Source: Phaeocystidibacter sp.
GTDB taxonomy: Bacteria; Bacteroidota; Bacteroidia; Flavobacteriales; Schleiferiaceae
Assembly: GCA_965659725.1 (NCBI GenBank)
Contig: CBFHXG010000009.1
Location: forward strand, 1,391-65,390
Length of the DNA: 64,000 nucleotides
Reading direction: 5' to 3'
The translations under genes were made by a program, and so were the position numbers. Positions 6,579 through 38,589 of this stretch are shown piece after piece (position 1 is the first letter of the stretch; each line of letters begins with the position of its first letter). A model generated the notes under the pieces. The model did not search any database, had not been told where the DNA came from, and saw nothing but the letters and a program-made list of their open reading frames with translations.

Positions 6579-6634
6579 GATACGTTGATCTGTTTATCTG
6601 TTGATACGTTTATCCGTTTCTCTGTTCATCCGTT
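6579..6634. repeat. Seven-unit degenerate octamer array (NATCYGTT)
   Basis: gatacgtt gatctgtt tatctgtt gatacgtt tatccgtt tctctgtt catccgtt. Confidence 0.9.
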
Positions 6635-6661
6635 AGCTTGAACGAATTACGGTGGTGCTGA

Positions 6662-6870
6662 TCAAACCTAACTCGCCTTTCGATCAACGAGCGAGCCCTG
6701 AAGCCTTTTGGCCCTCTTGCCCCCTATCAAAGAATTCACGGGGATATTAAAGAATTGAGCCTTGATTGCCTCGACAGCCCTGGCAAGGTTCATCCGTTTA
6801 TCCGTTTTCTTGAACCCATAACGAGGACTATATTCAAACCTAACTCGCCATTCGATCAACGAGTGAGCCC
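6662..6870. repeat. Direct repeat pair, 37-bp core, period 172 bp
   Basis: 6662-6698 vs 6834-6870: tcaaacctaactcgcc(t/a)ttcgatcaacgag(c/t)gagccc, 35/37 identical. Confidence 0.95.
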
Positions 6871-6955
6871 CGGAGCCTCGGGGTCCTGGAGCCTTGGTGC
6901 CTTAGTCTTTTGGCCCAGTGGCCCTCTTGCCCCCCTTGCGCCTTTGCGTGAGGCC

Positions 6956-6983
6956 AAAAAAAACCCCAGCTTTCGCCAGGGTT
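6956..6983 (-). terminator. Intrinsic terminator of the rhodopsin gene
   Basis: Minus strand AACCCUGGC-GAAA-GCUGGGGUU followed by a U-tract. Confidence 0.85.
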
Positions 6984-12259: not shown

Positions 12260-13585
12260 ATGCTGATTCAAATTGCCCAGTTCTTGCTCGGGCTCTCCAT
12301 ATTGATCGTATTGCACGAGTTGGGCCATTTTATTCCGGCCAAGCTCTTCAAGACCCGCGTTGAGAAGTTCTATCTATTCTTTGATTACAAGTTCTCCATC
12401 TTGAAAAAGAAGATCGGAGGTACAACCTATGGGATCGGCTGGATTCCTCTCGGAGGTTACGTGAAGATCTCGGGAATGGTAGATGAAAGCATGGATACCG
12501 AAGGATTGATGAAGGATCCAGAGCCATGGGAATTCCGTGCGAAACCAGCTTGGCAAAGGTTGATCATCCTCACCGGTGGAGTGATCGTGAACTTCTTCTT
12601 GGCCTTTGTTATCTACGCCGGAATGATGTCCTACTACGGTGAATCTTTCATTCAAAATGAAGATCTAAAGTATGGTGTAACAGTAGGCGAAGGTCTTCAA
12701 CAGATCGGGCTTGAAAGTGGAGACAAGGTAATTAGCATTGGAGGAGAAAAGATCCAGCGTTACGGCGACCTTAATAAATCCATCATTGTTGGTTTGGGAG
12801 AAGAGATCGTTGTAGACCGCAATGGCCAATTGATGAGCTTCGTGATCAGCAATAAGTCGATCGGCGAAGTGATCAAATCTGAACAAATCCCTCTCACCCC
12901 ACGAATTCCATTCATCGTAGGTGGTGTGATCGACTCACTCGGTGCAGCGAAAGGCGGGATAGAGCCCGAAGACAGCATCGTAGCCGTCAATGATCAGCCG
13001 GCCATCTTTTTTGACCAATTCGTCGATCAAGCTCAAGCGAATAAGAACGATACTGTTGCTGTTTCCTACTACCGCAATGGAATGCTCGACACTTCAATGG
13101 TATTCTTCAATGAGGAGGGCTTGGCTGGCATCGCTCCGGTACGCGACCTGTACCGATTCTTTGATATTACAGATACCGTTTACTCTGGTACGGCGGCCAT
13201 GTCGGCCGGTTGGGGTAAAGCCACTTCACAATTGAGCTACTACATACGTCAATTTAGAGTGATCTTCAGTCCTGAAACGGGTGCTGCAGGCCAACTCGGA
13301 GGCTTCAAGACCATGATGGAGCAGTATGAGGATGGAAGGTGGAACTGGGAGCGCTTTTGGGGTGTAACGGCCTTCATTAGCATCATGCTTGGGTTCTTGA
13401 ACATCCTGCCTATTCCTGCCCTTGATGGTGGTCACGTTGTGTTCACACTCATCGAAATGTTCACCGGAAGGAAGCCTAATATGAAAGTGTTAGAATACGC
13501 CCAAATGATCGGATTCTTCCTGTTGTTGGGGCTATTGATCTTCGCTAACGGAAACGACTTTGGTTTGTGGGACGCATTTAAGTAG
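12260..13585 (+). CDS. rseP: RIP metalloprotease RseP
   Basis: HELGH, PLGGYVKI, two PDZ domains, NILPIPALDGG. Confidence 0.95.
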   Translation: MLIQIAQFLLGLSILIVLHELGHFIPAKLFKTRVEKFYLFFDYKFSILKKKIGGTTYGIGWIPLGGYVKISGMVDESMDTEGLMKDPEPWEFRAKPAWQRLIILTGGVIVNFFLAFVIYAGMMSYYGESFIQNEDLKYGVTVGEGLQQIGLESGDKVISIGGEKIQRYGDLNKSIIVGLGEEIVVDRNGQLMSFVISNKSIGEVIKSEQIPLTPRIPFIVGGVIDSLGAAKGGIEPEDSIVAVNDQPAIFFDQFVDQAQANKNDTVAVSYYRNGMLDTSMVFFNEEGLAGIAPVRDLYRFFDITDTVYSGTAAMSAGWGKATSQLSYYIRQFRVIFSPETGAAGQLGGFKTMMEQYEDGRWNWERFWGVTAFISIMLGFLNILPIPALDGGHVVFTLIEMFTGRKPNMKVLEYAQMIGFFLLLGLLIFANGNDFGLWDAFK

Positions 13586-13608
13586 TCTCATAAGATCTCA
13601 TCGTATAG

Positions 13609-13639
13609 AGGGGATGCGCAAGTGCGTGTCCCCTTTTTT
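13609..13639 (+). terminator. Intrinsic terminator after rseP
   Basis: aggggatgcgc-aagt-gcgtgtcccct plus T-tract. Confidence 0.85.
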
Positions 13640-13751
13640 ATGCTCAGCAGAGGTGAACATGCAGGTCCCCTACTCCACTTCGTAAAAGTCGTTGATCGGA
13701 GGGTGGTGAGTGGCTCAGCACAGTGAGCTTTAAGGGGATTGGACGGGGGGT

Positions 13752-13934
13752 GCTGCCCGGGGCCAGCTCCCGCTGCCCCGTCTCCAAGGTACTCATTGTC
13801 TCCATAGCTATCCGTATGATATACGAGTACAAACGGCTACTAAACTGGTTTTCAGTATTGTTCTTGAGATCTCCAAACTTGGATAAAAATATCAGAACTT
13901 GATGCAGGGGCAGCGGGAGCTGGCCCCGGGCAGC
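13752..13934. repeat. Dispersed inverted-repeat (MITE/REP-like) element, copy 1
   Basis: Perfect 28-bp inverted repeat at 13752-13779 and 13907-13934; homologous copy near 36.73 kb. Confidence 0.85.
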
Positions 13935-14112
13935 GACTCCACCCCTAGCACTCCAGCAGACCCGCACTTCCTACTCCGTAAAGAACACATTCCCTACTCC
14001 AGATGAGTAAATGTCATGATCGATCTACCGGCAAAATGATCCTTGTATTTCTCAGGCTATTTACCGCCCATCTCCCTACACCTGATCAGCTTATCTAGCT
14101 TTCAAAGTATCC

Positions 14113-14181: not shown

Positions 14182-15330
14182 TTACGGGTCTTGAGTGGCG
14201 ACGGCGATGAGAAAGTCGGCATCTTCCACTAGCAATGCCTCGCCATTCGCGCTTCTGAGGAGAAAAGAGCCTTTGATGTGTAGTTTGACAGTTGGACGAC
14301 CATTTAAGTCGTTTTGATATTCAGTTACTTCCTCAATAGTAATCGTTCCTGGGTCATGGTGTAGATCGGTCCTGAACACTTCTCCGAACTTGTCCGTATA
14401 CTCAACACGTACGGTATTCAACTGCATAGAGTCAACACGACTAAACGTATTCACCTCGTATCCAAAGTCTACGAGCGGAAGGGCCGGGCTGCCGTTCCCA
14501 AAATAGTCACGTACCGGAATCTCACGTGTTTGACACGTACGTCCGCCGCCATTGTGACGGAATGCAGCTTGAATGTCTACCTCAGCGCCATCCTCAGGGC
14601 TTGCCTTGTAGAGAAGGGTATCCCCTGTGCTGTTGTATTGATTATTTACATGCCAAAGCACCTGGGTTACATCACTCTGATACATTGGATCCAGATAACA
14701 TAGGAATGTACCGTTGGATAGAACCTCAACGTGATAGCTCGCTATGGCCTCAGGGTGACGAATATCCACACAACGGGAGGTTTCAATAAAGTCCACGTTA
14801 TTCGGTCGAATTCCGATAGTCACTACTGGCTGAACGCCGCTGTAATTCGTGCTATCGAATGGGAATGTTGGGCTTGGCTCCATCACCCTTCCACCAAACT
14901 GAAATCTCCAATAGTACTGCGGGTGAGTAGCGTCATCGGCTCCCAATACGATTCCCGGCTTGATCCCGATGAATCCATCCACTGGAACATAGGTAGTTAC
15001 CGCTTGAAGATTCTTTTCACCTAGGCTTAGAACCTCATACACGTCAACATTTTCGCCTTCTTCAGAATTGGCGAAACCAAATTTCCAAGACGGCTTTCCA
15101 ACTTCATTGGCATTGAGGTCGCCTACCATGTAAACGAGACCGTTCTCCATGGTATAGTCAGTATGCATGTAATAACCTTCATCACCGGCGGTCATAGAAA
15201 CTTCATTTCCATTCACCAATGCCGTTGCATGGAAGTCTGGATTAACATCCGATGGAGGTAGTGGAGCATCTTTGCGACAGCCCACGAGTGCTAAGACAGC
15301 AGCGATATATGTGATTACTCTGATCTTCAT
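14182..15330 (-). CDS. Hypothetical lipoprotein
   Basis: Lipobox LVGC; 4-nt overlap with the upstream gene. Confidence 0.75.
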   Translation of the reverse strand: MKIRVITYIAAVLALVGCRKDAPLPPSDVNPDFHATALVNGNEVSMTAGDEGYYMHTDYTMENGLVYMVGDLNANEVGKPSWKFGFANSEEGENVDVYEVLSLGEKNLQAVTTYVPVDGFIGIKPGIVLGADDATHPQYYWRFQFGGRVMEPSPTFPFDSTNYSGVQPVVTIGIRPNNVDFIETSRCVDIRHPEAIASYHVEVLSNGTFLCYLDPMYQSDVTQVLWHVNNQYNSTGDTLLYKASPEDGAEVDIQAAFRHNGGGRTCQTREIPVRDYFGNGSPALPLVDFGYEVNTFSRVDSMQLNTVRVEYTDKFGEVFRTDLHHDPGTITIEEVTEYQNDLNGRPTVKLHIKGSFLLRSANGEALLVEDADFLIAVATQDP

Positions 15331-22176: not shown

Positions 22177-25100
22177 CTAGTGGATTACCGTTACCCAACC
22201 TCTCTTCTCGTATTCAGCCGAGGTGAACACCCAAACATAGGTGTCTTCCTTAACCTTCACTCCATCTCCACGGGTTCCATCCCAGAACTCGTTGAACGGA
22301 TCATGTGAGCTGAATACTAAGTTACCCCAACGATCGAAGATCTGGAATCTCGATGGCCCAATACATTCACTACCTACGATCTTGTACTTCTCATTGATCA
22401 TGTCTTCATTTGGCGTGAAGGCATTCGGAATGTGGAGATACTCTTGATCCTCATCTACACCCACATAAATGTAGAATGTACTGTCGCAACCCAACGCATC
22501 CGCGATGGTCAATTCGTGAGAACCTGGACGAATATCTTCCTTCGTTCCAGAGAACAGTTGTCCGTCAAAGTAGAATGAATACGGCGGAGTTCCACCCGAC
22601 ACATCGAGGTCTACATAACCGTCATTCGAAGTAGGACAAGTAGCAAAATCTACTGTAATTCCCGTTTCGATAGGCTCATTCTCAACAACCTCAACCGTGT
22701 CTTCGATTCTACATCCATTAGCATCTATCACCGTGTATGCATACTTACCTACACCCAGGTTGCCAATGTTCATTCCCGATTGACCGTGGCTCCACGTAAC
22801 CACGTATGGAGGAGTTCCACCAAATGGGTTGATATTCGCGCTTCCGCTATTGGCACCACCACAATTGATCCCGATAACATCTTCAACGGTTCCCAAGTCC
22901 TGATTAGGACCAGTGATGTCTACACTATCCGTCTTGTAACAACCCATGGCATCCGTAACAACTACGCCATATCTACCCACTGGTAGGCCTACTGCAGTAT
23001 CCCCTTGATGACCATTGGACCATACCACGTTGTACGGAGGAGTACCTCCAACAAGGTTGACGTGGGCAATACCATCGGCCTCGCCATAGCACATCACCGG
23101 TGTCAACATATTGGCTGCCGCCGATAGATCACGATTCGGTTCTGTAACGTTTCCACTCACCGTAACGGAACATCCGTTTGCATCGGTAATGGTAACCGTA
23201 TACTGACCAGCTAGCAAGTAGTTAAGTGTGTCGGTGGTAGCTCCGTTTGACCAAGACACTTGATACGGTGGAGTACCGCCCGTGTAATTGGTGTAGACAG
23301 ATCCGTTGGCATCTCCTTTACAGAATACATTCTGAATGATGTTCACGTTGGCTGTGATTGGAGAATTCGGTTCAGTAATAACCACCGTAGTGCTATCCGT
23401 ACATCCGTTGGCATCTGTAACAACGGCTGTATAGGACCCCGTGCTTACCTGACTCAATGTGTCATTGGTAGAGCCGTTCGACCAAGAGACATTGTAAGGT
23501 GCAGTACCTCCATTGATCTGGACATACGCCCATCCATCGTTACCACCGAAGCAAGATACATTCTGGATAAATCCATTGGCTGCATTCAGGGATCCCGAAG
23601 GTTGATTAATGGTTATCGAAATTGAATCGGTACATCCGTTCGCATCCGTAACCGTGGCTACATAGGTTCCCGCAGCAAGATTGCTAGCCGTAGTTCCCGC
23701 TTGTCCATTATTCCAGTTGATGGTGTACGGTGAAGTGCCTCCAGTGACTGAGATCGTAGCAAAACCATCTAGCCCGTTAAAACAGTTCACATGGCCTGTG
23801 GCAGTTGGTGTCACTGCAATTCCAGAAGCTGGTTGAGATACACTCACACTATGAGTTGTGTTACATCCACTGGCATCGGTTACCGTTACCGTATATGTTC
23901 CGGCCGTCACTCCCGCTAGATTAGCTGTAGTTGCACCATTTGACCAAGCATAGGTAAAAGGCGCTGTTCCGCCAGTAACATTAATCATCACTGCACCATC
24001 CGATCCGCCGAAGCAATTCACGTCTGTGATAGAGTTCGTGCTAACGGAGATACCGCTAGTTGGCTGGTTGATCGTTACGCTAGCCGTTGCCGTACACCCA
24101 TTGACATCGGTAATTGTTACCGAGTACGTACCCGCGCTAAGGTTACTGACAGTTGCGGTAGTGGCACCATTCGACCATGCATAGGTGTACGGAGACGTTC
24201 CGCCTCCCGGAGTAGCACTAGCCGATCCAGTAGCACCGCCAAAGCAATTCACATGACTTAGTACACCCGCCGAAGCACTCAGCGCATTCGACGGTCCATT
24301 GATGGTGATCGACCCAGATACCACACATCCGTTAGCATCCGTCACCGTCACTGTGTACGTTCCAGTAGCAAGTCCACTGATGTTGGCAGACGTTGCACCA
24401 TTCGACCAGTTGTAGGTATATGGAGCCGTTCCACCTGATACGTTCGCCGCACCTGCACCGGAATTAGAGCCAAAACATGAAACGTGATTAGAAACCACTG
24501 CATTCAATGTCAAGGCCGAAGCCGGCTGGGTGATTACAACAGACTGACTCGTGGTACATCCGTTGGCATCGGTTATTACAACCGTGTACGTACCTGCGGT
24601 GATGTTAGAGATCGTGTCTGTAGTTTGACCCGAGTTCCAAAGCACGCTATAAGGAGCCGTGCCGCCAGAGTAAGTAACATACGCCTCACCAGTCGCTCCG
24701 CCGAAGCATGTAACTTGACTTACAATAGTGGAGGTGCTCGTCAATGCACTACCAGGTTGATTTAGCGTCACATTTGCTGTAGACGTACATCCGTTGGCGT
24801 CTGTCACAGTTACGGTATACGTACCCGCAGCAACGTTAGAGATGGTTGCACCAGTTGCACCATTACTCCATGCATAGGTATATGGAGCCGTGCCGCCTGA
24901 ACCTCCGGCTGTTGCCGTGCCTGTAGAGGCTCCAAAACAATTGATATCCGTAGAGCTAAGGATCGCAACACTCAAAGCGCTAGCCGGCTGTGTGATCACC
25001 ACTGTGGCGGTATCCGAACAACCGTTAGCATCCGTGATGGTTACGGTATATGAACCTGCCGTCAATCCTGTTTGATTGGCACCAATGGCACCGTTGCTCC

Positions 25101-28100
25101 AAGCATACGTGTAAGGAGATGTTCCGCCACTTCCTGTTGCCGTTGCAGATCCTGTTGATCCACCGAAGCAAGCAACGTTAGCGTTCACCGTTGCTGATAC
25201 GTTCAAGGCTGAACTAGGTTCAGTGATCGTTACTGTTTCCGTTGTGGTACATCCGTTCGCATCCGCGATGGTCACAGTATAGGTGCCCGCGATCAAGTTG
25301 TTGATGGTATCCGTAGTGGCACCACTGCTCCAGCTAACACTGTAAGGTGCTGTTCCGCCTGTGTATGTGATATAGGCTAATCCATTATTTCCACCGAAGC
25401 AGCTCACATTCTGAATCACTGCACTCGTGCTGGTAAGTGCCGCTGATGGTTGAGTGATGTTCACACTCAATGTATCGGTACATCCATTCGCATCCGTTAC
25501 AGTAAGGCTATACGTTCCCGCCACCAAGTTGGTGAGGTTTGCCGTTGATGCGCCATTGCTCCATGCATATGTGTATGGTGCCGTCCCACCCGAAGTATTC
25601 ACTTGGATCGAACCGGTAGAGTTGCCGAAGCAATCTACATTCTGACTAGCGATCAGCGATACGCTCAAGGCAGATGCCGGTTGAGTGATGATCACGCTAT
25701 CCATATCAAAACAACCATTCGCATCGGTGATGGTCACAACATACTGACCGGCAGATAGTGCGTTGATAGTAGGTGTGTTTGCACCGTTGCTCCAAGCAAA
25801 CGTGTAAGGAGATGTTCCGCCTGTAGCTGTAGCTGTTGCCGATCCAGTAGGCACTCCAAAACAACTCACGTTTGAATTGATAGCTGCAGATGCATCCAAA
25901 GCACTCGCTGGTTGAGTGATAACCACTGAATCCGAAGCTGAACAACCATTGGCATCTGTGATAATAACAGAATAGGTGCCCGCTGGGATATTCACGATGG
26001 TATCAGACAACCCACCGTTGCTCCATGCAACTGAATAAGGAGGCGTTCCACCAGTGTAGGATACGTGAGCGTTGGCATCACTTCCACCGTAACAGCTCAC
26101 ATTATTGATCACGTTGGTGTTCAAGCTGATGGCAGTAGCGGGTTGGGTAATGGTTACGGTACTACTATCCGTACAACCATTCGCATCTGTAGCAACCACG
26201 GTGTAGACACCTGCCACTAATCCTGTTGCGGTCGCGGTAGTCTGCCCATCGCTCCATGCATACGTGTATGGTGCCGTACCTCCCGTTGTTGTTGCTGTTG
26301 CCGAGCCATTGCTTCCACCGAAACAACTCACATTCGAGTTCACGATGGCACTCACGTTCAATGCGGTTGCTGGTTGACCGATGTTCACTCCGGCGGTAAC
26401 CTGACATCCATTGCTATCGGTTACAGTAACCACATAGCTTCCGGCTGCAAGCGCACTCACCGTATCGCCGCTCATGCCATTACTCCAACTATAGGTATAT
26501 GGTCCGTCACCTCCAGAGGCAACCGCATACGCTACGCCATCGCTTCTGCCAAAGCAGTTCACGGCACTCAATTGAGCGACGGAAAGCGTAAGTGCAGTTG
26601 CTGGTTGAGTGATGGTAACAGAAATACTATCCTGACAACCATTGTCATCGGTAACGGTAACGGTATAACGTCCGGCAGCTAGACCAGAAGCTAGAGGCAC
26701 AGAAGGACCATGGTCCCAGTCGAAACTGTACGGAGGAGTACCTCCGATAGCAGAGGCTAGGATCGCTCCATCGGCACCTCCTAAACAGCTCACGTTATTG
26801 AGAACATTAATCTGAATGCTAATGGCAGAATCAGGTTGGGTCATGGTTACGTGAGCCGTATCCATACATCCATTTGCATCAACTACAGTAACGATATACA
26901 GTCCTGTATCCAGATTGAATGCCGTGTTACCTGTTTGACCATCGCTCCACGTATAGGTATACGGAGGTGTACCACCTGTGGCAGAAGCTGTCGCATATCC
27001 GTCAGATCCACCAAAACAGTTCACTGGGAAAAGAACGGACGCACTTGCATCTACTGCAGAGGCAGGTTCGCCAATGGTCACATAAGCGGTATCGGAACAA
27101 CCAAGGCTGTCTACCACCGCAACAGAATGCGTACCGGCAGATAAGTTAATGGCGGTAGCTGTTGTTTCACCGTTACTCCACAAATAGGTATATGGCGCAG
27201 TGCCACCTTGGGCAAACACATTAGCTGATCCGTCCGATCCACCGATACAGCTGACCTGACCCAGGAGTGTCATAGTAAGCATGATATCTTGAGGAGGCGA
27301 ACTAATAGTAACGTTAGCAGTAACATCACAACCGAGTGAATCGGTTACGGTAACTGAATAGATTCCAGGCGTAAGTCCAGTAGCTGTATCCGTAGTTTGA
27401 CCATCGCTCCATACATAGGTGAATGGTGGGATGCCGTTCGTTACGGTAACAGTGGCGGTACCATCGGCACCACCGAAACAGCTGGTAGTGGTCAATGCCA
27501 CACCAGAGGCGAAAATATCGCTGGCTGGCTGCGTGATCACGACTGAAACGAGATCTTGACAACCCAATGAATCCGTAACGAGTACAGCGTATGTTCCAGC
27601 GGTAAGACCTATTGCGGTATCGCCGGTTTGACCATCACTCCAAGAGTATGTATACGGAGGTGTACCACCCGTTGCATTCGCCCAAGCAGATCCGTCCGAT
27701 CCACCGAAGCAAGTAATAGTATTCACCACCACTCCACTCACAGAAACGGGAGCTGAAGGCTGTGTGATGCGCACACGAGCCGTATCGCTACAACCATTGG
27801 CGTCTGTTACGGTAACGGTGTACCACTGGGCGCTCAGACCCGTAGCTGTGGCTCCACTCGCACCGGTACTCCATAGATATGTATACGGTGCCGTTCCGCC
27901 TGAGGCGCTAGCTGTAGCTTGACCATCATTTCCACCGAAGCAAGATACACTTGCGATCATCGATGCAGATGCCGTGATGCGCGTGGCCGGTTGAGTAACT
28001 GTAACCGCAGCTGTATCTGTACATCCGTTCGCATCGGTTACAATAACGGTGTGTGTTCCGGCCCAGAATCCTGTAGCGGTACGTGTGGTTTGTCCATTGC

Positions 28101-31100
28101 TCCACAAGTACGTATAAGGCGAGGTACCACCCGATGCCGTGGCACGTGCGGTGGCCGTTGAATCTCCAAAGCACAGAACGTTTGTCAATACTGAAGCTCC
28201 ACCCGAAACTGCTGTGCTTGGCTCATCGATAACAATTTGAGCAGTAGCCGTACATCCATTCGAATCCGTAACGGTAACTGTGTGTGTTCCAGCAGTCAAT
28301 GCGATTGTCGTATCCGTTGTTTCACCATTGCTCCATGAGAAGGTATATGGGGGAGTACCACCAGACCCGCTTGCGACAGCGGAACCGTCAGACCCTCCTA
28401 AACAAGACACATCATTTACAAGAGCCGTGGCCGCGGCCACCGCAGTTGGTTGAGTAATAGTAACACTCTCCGTGATGCTACACCCCATGCTGTCTGTAAT
28501 GGTAACCGTGTATGTGCCGATTGCAATCCCCGTAATCGTGTCATTGGTAGATCCCGTGCTCCATAGGTACGTGTATCCACCCCATCCACCAGTCGCGGTA
28601 ACGTATGCCGTTCCATCGCTGGCACCAAAACATGAGATGGTCATGGCATCGATCGCCGATGCTGAAAGTGGTGCACTCGGACCAGGAATAGTGATGTTCG
28701 CGGCATCCGTACATCCTCTGGCATCCGTTACGGTCACCACGTAGGTTGATTGAGCTAGGCCAAAAGCAGAATCACCGGATTGACCATTGCTCCAAGCATA
28801 GGTATAGGGTGGCGTACCACCCGATCCAGCAACAGTAGCCCAGCCATCTGTACTTCCCACACAAGAAACACCCGTAATCTGAACTGCATTTACGTCTGTA
28901 GCAACCGCTGGCTCAGTGATCACAACAGAGGCTGTATCCTGACAACCCAATGAGTCGGTTACGATAACCGTATGTGCTCCAGCTGGTAAGCCTGTTGCAA
29001 TGGCCGAAGTTTGACCATTACTCCACGAGAAAGTATACGGCGGCGTTCCACCCATTGCACTGGCTGATGCCTCACCATCGGCACCGCCAACGCAAGAAAC
29101 AGAAGTGTCCATTTGAGCACTTGCCGCTACTGCAGTAGCTGGTTCTGTGATGGTAACGGTATCCATAACCTGACACCCGTTGCTGTCTGTCACAGTAACA
29201 TAGTGGTCGCCAGCAGCTAAGCCAGTAGCCGTTGCAGAGGTTTGTCCGTCGGTCCAAGCAAATGTGTAAGGAGGTGTGCCTCCAGATCCACTTACTGATG
29301 CCGAACCATCGGCACCGCCAAAGCAACTTACATTGTTTACTACCGAAGTTGAAGAGGTTACCGGGTCTGGTTCATCAATCGTGATCGAGCTAGTTGAAGA
29401 ACAACCAAGACTATCCACTACATAGACCAAATATTGACCTGCAGGAACTCCAGAAAGTGTGTCTCCCGTATGCCCTGTACTCCAAGAAATAATGTACGGA
29501 GGGTTTCCGCCTGAGGCAACACCGTATAGCACGCCGTCACTTGATCCATTACAAGGGATCTCGCCAATGATCGTTGCAGAAACCGCCAGGTCAACACTTG
29601 GTGGCGGAACGTCAAGGGTGTCAGTAGCCTGACATCCGTTGGAGTCTGTTACTGTCAACACGATCTGTCCACCACCTAATCCGGTTACCGTATCGTTAGC
29701 CGTTCCATTATTCCATGTGTAGGTGTAAGGAGCTGTTCCGCCCGAAGCAGTACCGTAAGCAGATCCATCCAAGAAGCCTCCACAAGTTGGAGCAGAGATC
29801 AAGGTGGCTGTGGCTGAAAGCGCTGAAGCAGGCTGCGTGATGGTTACATGGGCTGAATCTTGACAGCCATTTGCGTCGGTCATGATCACGTAATATCCAC
29901 CAGGCACAAGACCAGTAGCTATCTGTCCAGTTTGACCATCGCTCCACAAGTAGGTATAAGGAGTTACTCCACCTGAGCCGATCGCTTCTGCCGTACCGTC
30001 TGACCCTCCAAAACAGTTCACATCCGTTTTTGATATGATGGCCGCCAAAGGCATGGAAGGTTGAGTAATTGTAGCTGTATCGAACTCCGCACATCCGTTA
30101 GCATCCGTGATTTGAACCCAATAGGTTCCGGTGGCTAGTCCTGAGATGCTTTGAGTAGTTGCACCTGTATTCCATGCGTACGAATAAGGAGGAACTCCTC
30201 CAGTAGGCATTACAGAAGCCGTACCATCGTTCGCTCCAAAACAAGTGACGTTCGTAAAGTTGAGGTTCTCTACAAGTGGATCCGGTTCAGTAACCACAAC
30301 CGTGTTCGTATCGGTACAACCCATAGAGTCAGTTACCGTAACAATATAAGAACCAGCCGTAATGCCAGTTATAGTATCACCGGTCATGCCATTGCTCCAG
30401 CTGAAGGTGTAAGGAGGCGCCCCTCCAGTAGCTGATGCATATGCAATACCATCGCTACCGCCGGCACAGGTTATTGCATTTCCGTCTACAGCACCCACGA
30501 GTAACTCGAATGGGGCCTCGAAAATATTTACTGTGTCAATGTCGGTACAACCATTAGCATCGGTAACGATCAAGATGTAATCACCTCCTGCAAGACCATT
30601 GATATTTGCACCTGTCATGCCATTGCTCCAAGAGTACATGTAAGGCGGAGTACCTCCAGTTGCGGTTGCGGTAGCCGCACCATCTAAATCACCTCTACAA
30701 GTTACGCCCACTGTACTCGAAGTGCCGGCCTGAAGTGCAGCGGCAGGCTGAGTGATGGTAACGTTGATTGAATCTTCACAACCATTTGCGTCGGTGACCA
30801 CCACCGTATGTGTTCCAGCTGTTAAGTCGGTTACTACAGCGGTTGTTTGTCCGGAAGACCATAGATAGGTATAAGGAGAAAACCCTCCGCTTACCGTTAC
30901 AGTTGCTTCACCCGCTGCCTCTCCAAAGCAAAGAACGTTCGAATCCACATTTGCAGATACATTTAATGCGGTTGGCTCAGTAAGCGTGAACACGGCTGTA
31001 TCGATACATCCATTCGCATCAGTCACCGTTGCTGTATACGTTCCAGCAACTAGGTTCTGGATGGTATCCGTAGAAGCGCCATTCGACCAAGAAATGGTGT

Positions 31101-33456
31101 ACGGCGATGTTCCGCCCGTGATATCAACATAACCCGAACCATCCGAATCACCATTACAAAGAATGGCATTGATGATAGAGGCCGCAGCCACGAGTTCAGC
31201 ATTTGGTTCTTCGATAGTAACCGTTGCAGAATCTTCACAACCATTGGCATCGGTGACGATAACGCTATATGTACCACCGCTCAACCCAACGTTCGCTGTA
31301 TCTGTAACTCCATTACTCCATTCAAAATCATAGGGTGGAGTTCCTCCTGTTGCGGCTGCAACTGCTGATCCATCTCCATCTCCAAAGCAGAGAACATCTG
31401 TTGAATCCGTGATGGTCACCACAAGAGGTGTTGCCGGCTCAGTGATCGTTACATTAGCAGAGTCGATACATCCATTCGCATCGGTTACCACGACCGAATA
31501 GGTTCCGGCCGGAACTTGAATCGAATTAGTAGTATCACCTGTGTTCCAAAGAATGGAGTAAGGGACGGTACCACCGGATATCTGAACAGTGGCTACACCA
31601 TCCGCTTCACCAAAACATGAAACGGCTGATGTCATTACTCCAATAGCGGCAAGCGCAGAGTCTGGCTGCGTGATAGTCAATGAAAGTGTATCAGTACAAC
31701 CTACACTGTCAGTTATGATAACGGTGTGGCTTCCAGCAGGAAGACCAATAGCAGTATCGCTGGTTTCTCCATTACTCCAAAGGTAGGTGTACGGTGACGT
31801 TCCACCTGAGCCTACTACCACGCCTACACCATCAGATCCTCCGAAACAGGATACAGGCGCTTCCGCAATGGTCAACCCTCCTACAGGCTGAGCAGGTTCT
31901 GTTATAGTTACTTCCAATGAATCGGCACAACCGTTGGCATCGGTTACAACAACGGAATAGGTTCCCGCAACAAGGTTATTACGAGCACTGTCGGTATTTC
32001 CATCGTTCCAAAGAAGCGAATATGGAGGTATGCCCCCAGTAATGAGTAGATCGACTTGACCCGTACTATCGCCAAAACAGAGGATAGGAACCTGATTGTC
32101 GATCACCACTTCAAGTGGAGATGCTGGTTGAACCAGGTCGATGGTAACTGAATCAGTACAACCATTGGCGTCAACTACGGTGAGGGAGTAACTCCCCGCT
32201 CCCATTCCATTGAGCGTATCGTGTATTGCACCCGTATTCCAAGAGAAGGCATATGGCGGAGTACCCCCAGTGGCAAAGCCAGCGAGCTGTCCGTTAAGAT
32301 CACCGAAACAATCTATACTATCTAATATATCTATGTTGGCTATGAGGGAATCGGGTTCCGTGACCGTCACACTGACAGTATCGGTACAACCACCACCGCT
32401 TGTGATATAGATCTCGTAGGTGCCGGCAGACAAACCATAAACGGTATCGCTTGTGGCGCCATTGGACCATAGATAGGTTGTTGGTGGAGCTCCACCCCAT
32501 ACATCAACCCATGCCCAACCGTCGGTATCACCATGACAACTAACCTGACTTCCTTGCTCGGCGATGGCCCAGCCACAACCGCCCAAAGTGAAAACAGGAG
32601 TACTATCAGTGATAGCGATAAATACACTATCTGGGTCGGTAAAGAGATTGTCATTTACACCACCAATATCGGAAGCAGCCCCACCTAAGGCAGAGCTTGC
32701 AGAAGAAGCAGTGGCAAAGATCATTCGGATAGAATCGTTCGGATTGATACCGAGACTATCGAATGGAACGTAGAAATCGAGGAATACTGGATCGTTCTTC
32801 CAACAGTTGGTGTATCCAGCATGGGATCTTTGAGAGTGGGTCGATCCTGGATAAGTAGATAGTTGCGTACCTGTAGTGGTGCCATCTACGTCCATGATCG
32901 AAACCGATCCTTGGCCCGCGGTACCATAGATGATCTCAAGCTCGAATCCAGGGTTACCTGTTACGGCGTTGGGGTCGGCCGTTGCTCCGGTAAAGCCAAT
33001 ACGGTTATCGGTATCGATCAAAAAACTAAACCCGTATGCGCCCGTTACGTTGCGTGCAATGCGGATCCTATACATAAGGAATTCGTCTCCGTTTCCAGGA
33101 GTTCCATCTTGATCACCTAAATACCAATAACCTGCACTCATTGGGTAGTTAGGATTGTCTACGATCTCGGACTTACCGCAATCGTTACCGGTTAGGAGGT
33201 CGGCAGGGGGTTCGGCAGAAAGGTGGAACATTGGAATCATCGGATACTCAAAGTCGAACGACTCATCGATCACCACGGAGGTATCAATAGCACCTCCAGA
33301 TGCGGATATCCACCCATCACTATTAGGGTCGAGTACCGTACCTGGACTACTTTGGTAGATACTACCGATCTGCTGACTCCATCCAAAGAATGAAATTAGG
33401 AGAAGAGTAATAAGCCACACGCGCCGTTTGCAGGGAAGCGAGTAGAGGCTTGCCAT
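22177..33456 (-). CDS. Giant T9SS type B (CHU_C) adhesin with about 44 SprB-type repeats
   Basis: About 76-aa repeats V.C.GG.DG...GGT.PY.Y.WS.G...VTD.NGC (44 counted by eye); C-terminal IPNAFTPN.D..N; probable start MASLY at 33456. Confidence 0.9.
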   Translation of the reverse strand: MASLYSLPCKRRVWLITLLLISFFGWSQQIGSIYQSSPGTVLDPNSDGWISASGGAIDTSVVIDESFDFEYPMIPMFHLSAEPPADLLTGNDCGKSEIVDNPNYPMSAGYWYLGDQDGTPGNGDEFLMYRIRIARNVTGAYGFSFLIDTDNRIGFTGATADPNAVTGNPGFELEIIYGTAGQGSVSIMDVDGTTTGTQLSTYPGSTHSQRSHAGYTNCWKNDPVFLDFYVPFDSLGINPNDSIRMIFATASSASSALGGAASDIGGVNDNLFTDPDSVFIAITDSTPVFTLGGCGWAIAEQGSQVSCHGDTDGWAWVDVWGGAPPTTYLWSNGATSDTVYGLSAGTYEIYITSGGGCTDTVSVTVTEPDSLIANIDILDSIDCFGDLNGQLAGFATGGTPPYAFSWNTGAIHDTLNGMGAGSYSLTVVDANGCTDSVTIDLVQPASPLEVVIDNQVPILCFGDSTGQVDLLITGGIPPYSLLWNDGNTDSARNNLVAGTYSVVVTDANGCADSLEVTITEPAQPVGGLTIAEAPVSCFGGSDGVGVVVGSGGTSPYTYLWSNGETSDTAIGLPAGSHTVIITDSVGCTDTLSLTITQPDSALAAIGVMTSAVSCFGEADGVATVQISGGTVPYSILWNTGDTTNSIQVPAGTYSVVVTDANGCIDSANVTITEPATPLVVTITDSTDVLCFGDGDGSAVAAATGGTPPYDFEWSNGVTDTANVGLSGGTYSVIVTDANGCEDSATVTIEEPNAELVAAASIINAILCNGDSDGSGYVDITGGTSPYTISWSNGASTDTIQNLVAGTYTATVTDANGCIDTAVFTLTEPTALNVSANVDSNVLCFGEAAGEATVTVSGGFSPYTYLWSSGQTTAVVTDLTAGTHTVVVTDANGCEDSINVTITQPAAALQAGTSSTVGVTCRGDLDGAATATATGGTPPYMYSWSNGMTGANINGLAGGDYILIVTDANGCTDIDTVNIFEAPFELLVGAVDGNAITCAGGSDGIAYASATGGAPPYTFSWSNGMTGDTITGITAGSYIVTVTDSMGCTDTNTVVVTEPDPLVENLNFTNVTCFGANDGTASVMPTGGVPPYSYAWNTGATTQSISGLATGTYWVQITDANGCAEFDTATITQPSMPLAAIISKTDVNCFGGSDGTAEAIGSGGVTPYTYLWSDGQTGQIATGLVPGGYYVIMTDANGCQDSAHVTITQPASALSATATLISAPTCGGFLDGSAYGTASGGTAPYTYTWNNGTANDTVTGLGGGQIVLTVTDSNGCQATDTLDVPPPSVDLAVSATIIGEIPCNGSSDGVLYGVASGGNPPYIISWSTGHTGDTLSGVPAGQYLVYVVDSLGCSSTSSITIDEPDPVTSSTSVVNNVSCFGGADGSASVSGSGGTPPYTFAWTDGQTSATATGLAAGDHYVTVTDSNGCQVMDTVTITEPATAVAASAQMDTSVSCVGGADGEASASAMGGTPPYTFSWSNGQTSAIATGLPAGAHTVIVTDSLGCQDTASVVITEPAVATDVNAVQITGVSCVGSTDGWATVAGSGGTPPYTYAWSNGQSGDSAFGLAQSTYVVTVTDARGCTDAANITIPGPSAPLSASAIDAMTISCFGASDGTAYVTATGGWGGYTYLWSTGSTNDTITGIAIGTYTVTITDSMGCSITESVTITQPTAVAAATALVNDVSCLGGSDGSAVASGSGGTPPYTFSWSNGETTDTTIALTAGTHTVTVTDSNGCTATAQIVIDEPSTAVSGGASVLTNVLCFGDSTATARATASGGTSPYTYLWSNGQTTRTATGFWAGTHTVIVTDANGCTDTAAVTVTQPATRITASASMIASVSCFGGNDGQATASASGGTAPYTYLWSTGASGATATGLSAQWYTVTVTDANGCSDTARVRITQPSAPVSVSGVVVNTITCFGGSDGSAWANATGGTPPYTYSWSDGQTGDTAIGLTAGTYAVLVTDSLGCQDLVSVVITQPASDIFASGVALTTTSCFGGADGTATVTVTNGIPPFTYVWSDGQTTDTATGLTPGIYSVTVTDSLGCDVTANVTISSPPQDIMLTMTLLGQVSCIGGSDGSANVFAQGGTAPYTYLWSNGETTATAINLSAGTHSVAVVDSLGCSDTAYVTIGEPASAVDASASVLFPVNCFGGSDGYATASATGGTPPYTYTWSDGQTGNTAFNLDTGLYIVTVVDANGCMDTAHVTMTQPDSAISIQINVLNNVSCLGGADGAILASAIGGTPPYSFDWDHGPSVPLASGLAAGRYTVTVTDDNGCQDSISVTITQPATALTLSVAQLSAVNCFGRSDGVAYAVASGGDGPYTYSWSNGMSGDTVSALAAGSYVVTVTDSNGCQVTAGVNIGQPATALNVSAIVNSNVSCFGGSNGSATATTTGGTAPYTYAWSDGQTTATATGLVAGVYTVVATDANGCTDSSTVTITQPATAISLNTNVINNVSCYGGSDANAHVSYTGGTPPYSVAWSNGGLSDTIVNIPAGTYSVIITDANGCSASDSVVITQPASALDASAAINSNVSCFGVPTGSATATATGGTSPYTFAWSNGANTPTINALSAGQYVVTITDANGCFDMDSVIITQPASALSVSLIASQNVDCFGNSTGSIQVNTSGGTAPYTYAWSNGASTANLTNLVAGTYSLTVTDANGCTDTLSVNITQPSAALTSTSAVIQNVSCFGGNNGLAYITYTGGTAPYSVSWSSGATTDTINNLIAGTYTVTIADANGCTTTETVTITEPSSALNVSATVNANVACFGGSTGSATATGSGGTSPYTYAWSNGAIGANQTGLTAGSYTVTITDANGCSDTATVVITQPASALSVAILSSTDINCFGASTGTATAGGSGGTAPYTYAWSNGATGATISNVAAGTYTVTVTDANGCTSTANVTLNQPGSALTSTSTIVSQVTCFGGATGEAYVTYSGGTAPYSVLWNSGQTTDTISNITAGTYTVVITDANGCTTSQSVVITQPASALTLNAVVSNHVSCFGSNSGAGAANVSGGTAPYTYNWSNGATSANISGLATGTYTVTVTDANGCVVSGSITINGPSNALSASAGVLSHVNCFGGATGSASATPGGGTSPYTYAWSNGATTATVSNLSAGTYSVTITDVNGCTATASVTINQPTSGISVSTNSITDVNCFGGSDGAVMINVTGGTAPFTYAWSNGATTANLAGVTAGTYTVTVTDASGCNTTHSVSVSQPASGIAVTPTATGHVNCFNGLDGFATISVTGGTSPYTINWNNGQAGTTASNLAAGTYVATVTDANGCTDSISITINQPSGSLNAANGFIQNVSCFGGNDGWAYVQINGGTAPYNVSWSNGSTNDTLSQVSTGSYTAVVTDANGCTDSTTVVITEPNSPITANVNIIQNVFCKGDANGSVYTNYTGGTPPYQVSWSNGATTDTLNYLLAGQYTVTITDANGCSVTVSGNVTEPNRDLSAAANMLTPVMCYGEADGIAHVNLVGGTPPYNVVWSNGHQGDTAVGLPVGRYGVVVTDAMGCYKTDSVDITGPNQDLGTVEDVIGINCGGANSGSANINPFGGTPPYVVTWSHGQSGMNIGNLGVGKYAYTVIDANGCRIEDTVEVVENEPIETGITVDFATCPTSNDGYVDLDVSGGTPPYSFYFDGQLFSGTKEDIRPGSHELTIADALGCDSTFYIYVGVDEDQEYLHIPNAFTPNEDMINEKYKIVGSECIGPSRFQIFDRWGNLVFSSHDPFNEFWDGTRGDGVKVKEDTYVWVFTSAEYEKRGWVTVIH

Positions 33457-33640
33457 AGTTACTTGTTTTTGGTCTCTATATTTTTTTATCGCCCTTCGCA
33501 TAAGTTTACTTCAGGACAACTAGTCAAAGCTACACCACTCTAAATCACGAAGTTGTACACCCTTTCCGACATTCTATTCTGACTATTAAAGTAGAATTCG
33601 AGGCCAGTTGCTTAATTTACTGCATACTAACTACGAGTCA

Positions 33641-36378: not shown

Positions 36379-36567
36379 ATGAAGAATGATGTTACCATTG
36401 AAGTAGTAAACCTCTCCGGACAAATCCTCTACTCTAAAGAGAACATTAGTCCTTACGGTGAGCACACCTTCTCATTTGATACGGGTCTGAACGAAGCATA
36501 CGTTTACGTCGTACGCATCATCGACACCCAGACAGAAGAAATGTGGAGTGAGAAGATCATCTATTGA
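36379..36567 (+). CDS. Small T9SS-CTD-like ORF or gene remnant
   Basis: IEVVNLSGQIL...Y.VRI...KII resembles a type A CTD; no signal peptide. Confidence 0.4.
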   Translation: MKNDVTIEVVNLSGQILYSKENISPYGEHTFSFDTGLNEAYVYVVRIIDTQTEEMWSEKIIY

Positions 36568-36592
36568 TCGGAACCCTCACACTATACTATAG

Positions 36593-36623
36593 AAAGCCTC
36601 CGGTCGTGGAGGCTTTTATTTTT
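36593..36623 (+). terminator. Intrinsic terminator
   Basis: aaagcctcc-ggtcgt-ggaggcttt plus T-rich tail. Confidence 0.85.
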
Positions 36624-36726
36624 ACAGAGAATTAGTTTTCAAGGTCACTATTGATTTTGATATTCAAATAATGAGGCACTAAGGTTTCTACGAACAGCTG
36701 GGCGAAGGACCATTCACGAGGGGTGT

Positions 36727-36920
36727 TCTGCCTGGGGTCAGCTCCCGCTGCCCCGATATCAAGTTACGAAGAAAGCACACGTTAGTCGGAGGATATACGG
36801 ATACAAACGGATAATTCACAAACGGACCGGCTTCGGTCATTTATGTCCTTGAGATCCGCGAGATCCGTTTGATATGCACTAACTTGAGAGCAGGGGATGC
36901 GGGAGCAGCCCCCAGGGAAA
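36727..36920. repeat. Dispersed inverted-repeat element, copy 2
   Basis: Left arm 25/28 and right arm 20/28 identical to copy 1; shared internal blocks. Confidence 0.8.
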
Positions 36921-37011
36921 CCCCTCCCCAACCAGGAATCCTGCCCATGCCATTCTAAGCCTTGCCAAAGACCCATCGATCTCTTCCAAATACTACTAGC
37001 TGGCAATCCTT

Positions 37012-37377
37012 TCAATCCCCTTTCAACCTATCCAGATCCCTTCTTTCACGCTTGGTGGGTCTACCCGTTCCTCTATCCCGTTGAAGGTTCTTCGCCAACC
37101 TCAAAAATTCTTGCTTATCCGCCTCTTCCTGAGGCGTGGTTTCTTTAATTAGATCGGGAACTAACTTGGCACCTACCCTCGACTTTGGGATGCTGATGAC
37201 CTTGAAACTTCTGGAAAAGCCGTGGAATTTGACAGTGAACTCATCGCCGCTTTTCAACTCCCGAGATGCCTTTACAGGAATATCATCGATCAACACACGT
37301 TCTTTTCGCACCTCATTGGCTGCCAAAGATCGCGTCTTAAAGATCCGTACACACCACAAGAATTTATCGACCCGCAT
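37012..37377 (-). CDS. hslR: Heat shock protein 15 (S4 RNA-binding domain)
   Basis: MRVDKFLW..R.FKTRSLA and GRPTKRERR motifs. Confidence 0.92.
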   Translation of the reverse strand: MRVDKFLWCVRIFKTRSLAANEVRKERVLIDDIPVKASRELKSGDEFTVKFHGFSRSFKVISIPKSRVGAKLVPDLIKETTPQEEADKQEFLRLAKNLQRDRGTGRPTKRERRDLDRLKGD

Positions 37378-38020: not shown

Positions 38021-38031
38021 GTGAAGGGAGT

Positions 38032-38589
38032 TAGAGTGTTAGGGTGTTAGGGTGTTAGGGTGTTAGGGTGTTAAAGTTACTTGAGATTCGACAACCTCAA
38101 ATCTCAATTCTTCACCTTGTGGGTTTTAAACCCAAGTATTATGTCATTATTTGCAAAAACCATAGAAGAGTTGCATTGTTGGCAAGCGGCTCGCAACCTG
38201 GTGGTAATGGTAGATGACCTTATCAGAATGAACCCCGCTCTCAGCAAAAATTATAACCTTAAAGATCAACTCTTTCGTGCGAGTTTAAGTGTTATGAACA
38301 ACATAGCTGAGGGTTTTGGTAGATACCACAAGAAAGAGTTCATGCGATTCCTGGACATTGCCAAAGCGAGCTGCGTAGAGGTTGAAAGTATGTCTTACGT
38401 ACTGGCAGACCTGAAGCTTATTGAAGCTTCTGAAAGTGTTGAGCTCAAGAAGCAAATCACTATTACAAAACGTAAAACTGCAGGGCTGCTAGCTCATCTT
38501 TACAGGACCAATGAAAGCCAACAGACTGCCAAAACCGCAGAGTGATAGGTTAAACACTAACTCTAACACCTTAACACTCTAACACTCTA
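38032..38589. mobile_element. Putative IVS-like cassette: four-helix-bundle gene between 30-bp inverted octamer arrays
   Basis: 38032-38061 complementary to 38560-38589 (27 Watson-Crick + 3 G-U); lies antisense inside a minus-strand operon. Confidence 0.6.
38141..38545 (+). CDS. Four helix bundle protein (23S rRNA IVS protein / TIGR02436-like, Avd-related)
   Basis: EL.CWQ.A, QL.RAS.S...NIAEG.GR...KEF..FL.IA..S..E motifs; start MSLF. Confidence 0.92.
   Translation: MSLFAKTIEELHCWQAARNLVVMVDDLIRMNPALSKNYNLKDQLFRASLSVMNNIAEGFGRYHKKEFMRFLDIAKASCVEVESMSYVLADLKLIEASESVELKKQITITKRKTAGLLAHLYRTNESQQTAKTAE

Follow-up and report, generated by a model that had tools for sequence, protein, structure and literature searches.

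Paired GC-rich hairpin repeats with REP-dimer-like behaviour form a small family in a few marine Flavobacteriales

Introduction

What kind of element is the short intergenic segment at positions 13752-13934 of a 64-kb stretch of bacterial DNA (64,000 nucleotides, hereafter the window), which ends in GC-rich inverted repeats and recurs once in the same stretch? An earlier note, made from the letters alone, had offered three readings: a MITE, a REP/BIME-like repeat mobilised in trans, or a multi-copy structured RNA. Our analysis indicates that the element is real, uncatalogued and present in multiple copies. Among the three readings, the REP/BIME-like one fits best, because the arms keep their own hairpins, pairing between the arms is not conserved, no target duplication is found and all copies are extragenic. 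A classical MITE is not supported, since neither a target duplication nor, in exact-match searches, an insertion sequence with these ends was found, and the evidence decides neither for nor against the RNA reading.

Results

The window and its two copies

The window comes from a marine member of the Flavobacteriales, has a GC content of 47%, and encodes proteorhodopsin, T9SS-type sorting domains and TonB receptors. Among named organisms, the closest are Phaeocystidibacter luteus (77% identity, one protein) and P. marisrubri, and the window's organism is present in marine and lake metagenome runs. The roughly 59 open reading frames of at least 62 aa, compared with Pfam, are all housekeeping or of unknown function; as the earlier note had stated for transposases, none was found here, and neither was a recombinase, a reverse transcriptase or an HUH protein. 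Among these reading frames is one of 3774 aa (22177-33501). Self-BLAST shows it to be rich in internal repeats, and the SprB and CHU_C domains of its counterparts in relatives make a gliding or adhesion surface protein probable. The two copies of the element are composed of the following features:

13752-13788, plus strand: left arm of copy 1 (inverted repeat, hairpin fold)
13789-13895, plus strand: oriented interior of copy 1 (alignments, block search)
13896-13934, plus strand: right arm unit of copy 1 (inverted repeat, hairpin fold)
36727-36765, plus strand: left arm of copy 2 (alignment with copy 1, strain comparison)
36766-36880, plus strand: oriented interior of copy 2 (alignment)
36881-36920, plus strand: right arm unit of copy 2 (alignment, hairpin fold)

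The arms of copy 1 form the perfect 28-bp inverted repeat around 127 nt that had been noticed before (13752-13779 and 13907-13934), and the repeat reaches 37 nt at 89% complementarity. The folding z-score against dinucleotide shuffles is -9.2 to -9.35 on either strand. Within the left arm, a hairpin unit at 13759-13779 (GGGG-C-CAGC-TCCC-GCTG-CCCC) is followed by three nucleotides and then by TCCAAGGT (13783-13790), the reverse complement of an AACTTRAT-type motif. The right arm consists of AACTTGAT (13896-13903), three nucleotides, a hairpin at 13907-13927 (GGGG-CAGC-GGGA-GCTG-G-CCCC) and GGGCAGC. The interior holds the blocks TAGC..GATATACGAGTACAAACGGCTA (13805-13839) and CTTGAGATC (13863-13871), without the variable hairpin that copy 2 and three of the MAG copies described below possess. 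Two reading frames across the element, of 107 aa (minus strand) and 59 aa (plus strand), were rejected because the indels between copies are not multiples of three.

Alignment bears out that copy 2 (approximately 36727-36920) has the same orientation as copy 1 and shares with it the arms and the blocks GATATACGRRTACAAACGG, CTTGAGATC and AACTTGA. Its arms are less perfect, matching at 74% over 35 nt. The left arm contains a hairpin unit at 36734-36754, three nucleotides and ATCAAGTT (36758-36765); the interior contains TAGTCGGAGGATATACGGATACAAACGGATA (36783-36813), the hairpin GACCGGCTTCGGTC (36825-36838) and CTTGAGATC (36848-36856); and the right arm contains AACTTGAG (36881-36888), four nucleotides and a hairpin at 36893-36913 (GGGG-ATGC-GGGA-GCAG-C-CCCC), in which an A-T pair has been swapped to T-A with the pairing kept. 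Two positions in the left arm, T36733 and T36738, are strain-specific: a 99.3% identical strain and runs X20 and X12 have C at each. Through its C-to-T change, position 36733 forms a T-A pair with the right arm, where C would face A as a mismatch.

Both copies are located between convergent genes and just downstream of a plus-strand terminator, as had been described. Copy 1 follows RseP (plus strand, ending at 13585, with a terminator-like site at 13607-13636) and is followed by a minus-strand gene of 382 aa that ends at 14182. Copy 2 lies between a short plus-strand reading frame ending at 36567, with a terminator-like site at 36592-36617, and a minus-strand S4-domain gene ending at 37012. 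This short reading frame (36379-36567, 62 aa) has a weak match to a T9SS C-terminal sorting domain (E = 0.005) and is probably the remnant of a larger secreted-protein gene. The terminator ahead of copy 2 is directly followed by a stretch of about 55-60 nt (36607-36667) that occurs once in the window; it is multi-copy in a related strain (depth 86-149 vs 14, run X20) and has different flanks in run X12.

Family size and distribution

Inside the window, the 16-mer core of the arm has 4 matches with up to three mismatches, vs 0.35 expected from shuffles, and the internal 19-mer has 2 matches vs 0.05 expected. An nhmmer family profile finds exactly two copies in the window, in agreement with the earlier count, and the nhmmer search of 29 loci revealed no further diverged copies.

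Beyond the window, we scanned one genome per species, across 185,579 species, with the 21-mer of the arm; the window's own genome was not among the matches. Five full elements were detected in the MAG "Flavobacteriia bacterium HF-Dia32" (46% GC), where the element's flanks have nothing in common with those of the window, and three of the eight genome matches were set aside as chance matches in high-GC coding DNA. Searches with the exact 21-mer in JGI metagenomes and IMG/VR gave no matches, or chance matches only (70%-GC coding DNA). When metagenome contigs were aligned to copy 1, two further copies with different flanks appeared at the depth of the window's genome (about 34-38x), and on this contig evidence the genome holds at least four copies. 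A strain in run X20, approximately 93-97% identical, carries copy 2 at the same site, the fourth of the copies just mentioned, and contigs that match the interior block only, while several arm-bearing contigs in run X12 come from other organisms. Taken together, the copies in the window's genome, in HF-Dia32 and in the metagenome runs indicate that at least three organisms carry the family, with roughly 4-10 copies in each genome. At the sites of the element, metagenome assemblies break because of the arms.

The earlier note had allowed for an element limited to two copies and matching a catalogued family. The count per genome is instead higher than two (at least four here, five in HF-Dia32), and the element matches no Rfam family, plasmid or phage record: the window has no match in Rfam at gathering thresholds, and BLAST in distant mode found none in plasmid and phage records. 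With the Rfam threshold relaxed to an E-value of 10, the best sub-threshold match is a plant microRNA precursor model (28.5 bits vs 85 needed), which is due to the long stem only. The family is small and lineage-restricted, and consists of intergenic paired GC-rich hairpin repeats of a few marine Flavobacteriales.

Anatomy and conservation of the element

The seven sequenced copies, two from the window (W1 and W2, that is, copies 1 and 2) and five from HF-Dia32, were aligned. In this alignment the element consists of two inverted units of about 40 nt, each of which reads outward as 5'-AACTTRAT-N3-GGGG(C)CAGC-GGGA-GCTG(G)CCCC-GGGCA-3'. The inverted doublet is present in all seven copies, with inverted repeats of 26-37 bp and 109-138 nt between the arms. 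The motif AACTTRAT stands exactly 3 nt from the foot of the hairpin in 13 of the 14 arms, and none of the 14 has GTAG, GTGG or CGTC at either end. The units enclose an oriented spacer of about 85-100 nt, in which blocks (TAGTCG..GTAAACG and CTGAGAT) are conserved and a hairpin is optional. Its order is a variable stretch, TAGTCG-N4-5-(G/A)TA(A/T)ACG, the optional hairpin, CTGAGAT and a second variable stretch. Three MAG copies have TGCGTGATTCACGCA as the optional hairpin, and a fourth has it in degenerate form; copy 2 carries an unrelated hairpin, GACCGGCTTCGGTC, in this place, and copy 1 and MAG copy M002 have none.

Arms and interiors differ greatly in conservation. W1 and M004 have arms that are 100% identical over 52 nt, vs interiors that are 48% identical; overall, the interiors are 42-67% alike, and W1 and W2 (50%) are no closer to each other than either is to the MAG copies. 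The conservation of the arms is partly an artefact, because the copies were found through the arm 21-mer, yet in five of the seven copies the other arm, which the search did not select, also reaches at least 85% conservation.

Three diverged arms are informative as to what is being conserved. The right arm of W2 (4 substitutions), the left arm of M007 (6) and the right arm of M008 (7) each mismatch their partner, and each still forms the hairpin of 7-8 bp; equal numbers of random substitutions keep the stability of the hairpin in only 6.3%, 6.6% and 1.3% of trials, respectively (Fisher combination about 0.003). All eight arm variants fold on their own into a hairpin of 7-8 bp, with energies of -6.5 to -8.8 kcal/mol as DNA. 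The proportion of paired cells is 96% and 95% in the two within-arm helices and 93.5% in the between-arm helix, which has more broken cells at variable columns. Each within-arm helix shows one double-sided compensation (A-T to C-G in one, A-T to T-A in the other). The retention of the hairpin in diverged arms and the pair counts thus point to selection on the single-strand hairpin and sequence of each unit, and not on a long duplex. In the interior, two hairpins are conserved at the level of structure, and M007 and W1 have a compensated T-A to C-G change in one of them, TAGTCG/CGACTA. None of 500 shuffles reaches the covariation score of the whole structure, a control that is lenient for related sequences.

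Insertion sites and signs of mobility

All seven copies are intergenic. The genes around them may be convergent, tandem or divergent, the element can point either way, and three of the copies lie between convergent gene ends. Comparison with relatives shows both window sites without the element. A relative (RseP 65% identity) has a syntenic counterpart of the copy 1 site, which lies between the genes for RseP and the 382-aa protein; in the relative this site is empty and measures 186 nt vs 597 nt in the window, and the minus-strand terminator there is recognisably the same as that of the window. Downstream of the S4 gene, at the site of copy 2, three relatives have 77 nt, 8 nt and a slight gene overlap, respectively, and no element. 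In run X20, a strain of about 93% identity has a shorter allele at the site of copy 1, with 78 other letters in place of 13661-13914 and the outer half of the right arm kept. In a search for this allele, the one homologue cluster below 90% identity (P0257, 76%) was on a non-syntenic contig.

The empty sites that the earlier note had suggested looking for are thus present, whereas the target duplication that they might have defined is not: no such duplication was found in the seven copies, either at the ends of the arms or at the outer GGGG/CCCC boundary. Around copy 1, direct repeats CCCTACTCCA (100%) and ACTTCGTAAA/ACTCCGTAAA occur at 13668-13686 and 13965-14001, about 300 nt apart and outside the arms. 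These repeats, CCCTACTCCA and ACTYCGTAAA, were considered as target duplications and are not counted as such, because the other copies have no counterpart.

A search for IS or RAYT genes with matching ends had also been proposed. Neither the window nor the scanned reading frames of the 8-kb HF-Dia32 loci contain a gene flanked by the arm unit, or a RAYT, Y1 or other transposase. No two arms at the distance expected of an IS came up when the genome, metagenome and viral collections were searched for exact matches to the 21-mer, an approach that would miss a parent with slightly different ends. The interior is found in a single orientation, with no strand-changing joints, in contigs of at least eight runs at up to 38x, although contigs drop rare variants.

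Skewed flanks

Every copy, in at least three organisms, is bordered over 100-200 nt by sequence that is rich in G and poor in C on the left, and rich in C and poor in G on the right, and the skew also appears in extra copies known only from loose ends of 30 nt. It tracks the element, whichever way the adjacent genes point. When the 80-nt stretches of the 64 kb are ranked by skew in each direction, three of the four window flanks come within the top five for theirs. The ratio of TGGA to TCCA is 15 to 1 in left flanks, and that of TCCA to TGGA is 18 to 1 in right flanks. The flank features are listed below; no strand is assigned to those of the window.

13661-13751: left flank of copy 1, G-rich and C-poor, among the most G-skewed 80-nt stretches of the 64 kb
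13935-14030: right flank of copy 1, C-rich and G-poor, among the five most C-skewed 80-nt stretches
36918-36990: right flank of copy 2, C-rich and G-poor, the third most C-skewed 80-nt stretch
HF-Dia32 loci L007 2764-2875, L008 4546-4629, L004 5700-5784 and L006 7280-7420: flank arrays, always G-rich towards the element on the strand running into it

The right flank of copy 2 evolves fast between strains. In HF-Dia32, the flanks of several copies are degenerate arrays with a period of 8 nt (TGGAnnnn; units such as TGGACAAC and TGGAGGAC). Identity at lag 8 is 0.39-0.45 in the MAG copies, and the window copies have no such periodicity; since it is clear only in the MAG copies, we do not regard it as a defining part of the element. 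The flanks were also considered as an extension of the stem, which was rejected, as the energy of a flank-to-flank duplex is no better than that of shuffles in six of the seven copies (z about 0). As a speculation, transcripts leaving the element in either direction would be C-rich and G-poor, and in this sense Rho-loading-like. The skewed flanks may hold a clue to the way in which these elements select or modify the sites where they insert.

Two other loci of the window carry 8-nt arrays. A gene for a 23S-rRNA-IVP / four-helix-bundle protein (38081-38545, plus strand) has inverted 8-nt repeat arrays on both sides, namely AGGGTGTT repeated 6 times at 38025-38073 and CTAACACC repeated 3.4 times at 38563-38589. 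Its polarity is G-rich on the left and C-rich on the right, as in the flanks of the paired-hairpin element. The cassette as a whole (about 565 nt, 38025-38589) is absent from two relatives, in which the enoyl-CoA hydratase and hydrolase genes adjoin, and it therefore resembles a mobile cassette; a literature search on arrays at IVP genes gave nothing useful. At 6579-6960, between a GNAT acetyltransferase gene and the proteorhodopsin gene, are two tandem units of about 170 nt, each composed of an 8-nt-period array (CGTTTATC / GTTTATCC), then TCAAACCTAACTCGCCnTTCGATCAACGAGnGAGCCC..., and then a GC-rich tail.

Discussion

We consider that the element is best explained, with a probability of roughly 45%, as a REP dimer of the BIME/REPIN kind that owes its spread to an enzyme acting in trans and specific for the hairpins, probably one of the HUH/RAYT type. 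When the DNA becomes single-stranded, for example at a replication fork, each unit would fold into its hairpin. A sequence-specific enzyme encoded elsewhere in the genome could then recognise the hairpin together with the adjacent 8-nt motif, the likeliest candidate being an HUH/Y1 transposase of the RAYT type. This candidate enzyme would have copied the element into intergenic DNA without target duplication. AACTTGAT(A) may be a lead here, as it resembles the CTTG/ATA nick site of phiX174 gpA and of pC194-type HUH Rep proteins. The inserted copies would be long-lived, their arms held constant by the need for recognition or by use in the host, and their interiors free to drift. The trans-acting partner is hypothetical, because no gene flanked by the arm unit was found in the window or in the scanned HF-Dia32 reading frames, and the mobilisation in trans that the earlier note proposed is something we infer. 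Several findings speak against this reading: these searches also gave no RAYT, Y1 or other transposase, the tag of catalogued REPs is missing, the copy number is low and the spacer is longer than usual. Moreover, mobilisation by itself gives no reason for the order and orientation that the spacer blocks keep in both genomes, and the G-rich and C-rich flanks are not accounted for.

The conserved blocks speak for a multi-copy structured RNA, which could be a small RNA gene or else a module acting in cis, such as a processed or protective element in read-through transcripts; the hairpins of arms and interior would then be structures of this RNA. Besides these blocks, structure-level signals point in this direction: the TAGTCG/CGACTA compensation in M007 and W1, the use of two unrelated hairpins at one position (TGCGTGATTCACGCA in three MAG copies, GACCGGCTTCGGTC in copy 2), a GGGA loop of the GNRA type in one arm hairpin, and the covariation score, for which the shuffle control is lenient as noted above. 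We nevertheless judge an RNA unlikely. Rfam gives no match up to an E-value of 10; there is no sigma-70-type promoter, and no TAnnTTTG of the Bacteroidetes type at a conserved alignment position; neither end of the element has a terminator; its orientation relative to neighbouring genes varies; and the variable hairpin is absent from W1 and M002. The evidence from G-U pairs favours different strands in different helices, since in the arm-adjacent helix of four MAG copies a plus-strand C·A corresponds to a minus-strand U·G, while other helices favour plus. As for the RNA data suggested by the earlier note, no RNA contig covers copy 2 in four RNA-type runs of a related strain, where the contig of the S4 mRNA (depth 42) ends at 36985; this is weak evidence, because it comes from contigs only. 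A classical MITE would derive by deletion from an IS with a DDE transposase, and this parent transposase would bind the terminal inverted repeats (roughly 26-48 bp) as double-stranded DNA. It would account for the length of these repeats and their much stronger conservation relative to the interior, for the size of about 190 bp and intergenic location, and for relatives whose orthologous sites have no element. The extended ends (GGGG...TAAG) also recall the inverted repeats of the Tn3 family and small elements derived from it. This explanation is quite unlikely, however, as neither candidate boundary shows a direct repeat in the seven copies, and as diverged arms keep an internal hairpin for which a double-stranded binding site would not select. 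In addition, the 21-mer scans (185,579 species, JGI metagenomes, IMG/VR) gave short elements and chance matches rather than an IS-sized pair of arms, and plasmid and phage records had no match.

The skewed flanks, for their part, could be expected of a chromosomal site that serves the host and is not a selfish element, such as a two-way transcription barrier or insulator with Rho-loading-like flanking tracts, or a protein-binding landmark. The G-rich left and C-rich right flanks of all copies in at least three organisms, the rank of three window flanks among the top five skewed stretches, the TGGA/TCCA bias with its reversal on the right, and a skew that goes with the element and not with gene orientation are all in line with it, as is the sequence-level constraint on the arms at each copy. 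It is improbable, though, since relatives do well with no element at the same sites and the flanks are not specifically complementary (z about 0 in six of seven copies); moreover, both window copies already follow ordinary intrinsic terminators, so that an extra barrier is not obviously needed. A more elaborate proposal, which we regard as a long shot, treats the element and its skewed flanks as one self-insulated module of about 400 nt. Here the two inverted units, each made up of a nick-site-like AACTTGAT and a hairpin, would be substrates for an HUH enzyme of the rolling-circle type. The conserved cargo between them would be small, perhaps a short RNA that ends at the internal hairpin, and the C-rich tracts would stop outgoing transcripts. 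If this proposal were true, the IVP cassette at 38025-38589 would be a second cargo of the same kind of vehicle. Finally, invertons are common in Bacteroidota, and inverted repeats of 26-37 bp around an oriented segment of 110-140 bp in a Bacteroidota genome might suggest a site-specific recombinase that flips the interior. This is barely credible here: the interior has no promoter motif, three copies lie between convergent gene ends, where a switchable promoter drives nothing, the window encodes no recombinase, contigs of at least eight metagenome runs at up to 38x show a single orientation, and the conservation of hairpins within the arms would be left unexplained.

Under the REP-dimer reading, the family has some wider relevance. 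REP, BIME and REPIN repeats and their RAYT partners are documented mainly in Proteobacteria, and for Bacteroidota only "atypical secondary structures" beside a RAYT subclass have been mentioned (PMC6006769). The present family is a cleanly defined low-copy case from uncultured marine Flavobacteriales with an explicit recognition unit (an 8-nt motif, 3 nt and a hairpin). It provides evidence that selection sees a single-strand hairpin and not a long duplex, and it offers a concrete handle on the responsible enzyme and on hairpin-directed DNA mobility in Bacteroidota.

Comparison with known systems

The ends of IS200/IS605 elements, and the PATEs derived from them, share with the present element the subterminal hairpins, a short cleavage or guide motif nearby, the lack of target duplication and, as proposed here, HUH/Y1 chemistry. 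Both of their end hairpins, however, are on the same strand, whereas the units of our element are inverted, as in REP dimers; a PATE was rejected on these grounds, the two units being reverse complements.

Correia elements (CREE) of Neisseria measure about 100-200 bp, have inverted ends of about 26 bp, lie in intergenic DNA and form a long RNA stem, and their conserved interior has protein-binding or regulatory potential. Together with other TIR-type MITEs, they are comparable to our element in size, inverted ends, conserved interior and intergenic location. Correia elements differ in that they duplicate a TA target and number in the hundreds, whereas the element described here has no duplication, few copies and selection on hairpins within the arms.

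The likeness to REP, BIME and REPIN repeats is broader. These are extragenic, consist of two inverted GC-rich palindromic units, and have neither a target duplication nor an internal transposase (PMC3733652, PMC3116915, PMC6006769); their units fold alone or pair, a short motif stands at the foot of the hairpin, and the spacer is conserved and partly structured. Differences exist in the tag, as GT[AG]G or CGTC marks nearly all catalogued REPs and our element has AACTTRAT instead; in abundance, with about 4-10 copies per genome vs the usual tens to hundreds; in the spacer, which is longer (109-138 nt) and has blocks conserved across genomes; and in the strong G/C skew of the flanks. The element thus behaves like a REP dimer, yet its tag (GTAG/CGTC in REPs) and its copy number place it outside formal REP membership. 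REP families of fewer than 20-100 units are on record, among them families of fewer than 20 (PMC3733652), and members of the Bacteroidetes-dominated RAYT subclass 2.6 are flanked by atypical hairpins without GT[AG]G (PMC6006769). The hairpin repeats of this subclass (RAYT group 5) belong to the same phylum as our element, likewise do not have GT[AG]G and occur in low numbers elsewhere in the genome (PMC6006769). No subclass 2.6 gene was found near any of the copies studied. The subclass 2.6 structures, compared by description only, are described as weak, whereas the hairpins of our element are strong and GC-rich (PMC6006769). Set beside these systems, the family adds modestly to the known repeat DNA of bacteria and does not represent a new kind of system.
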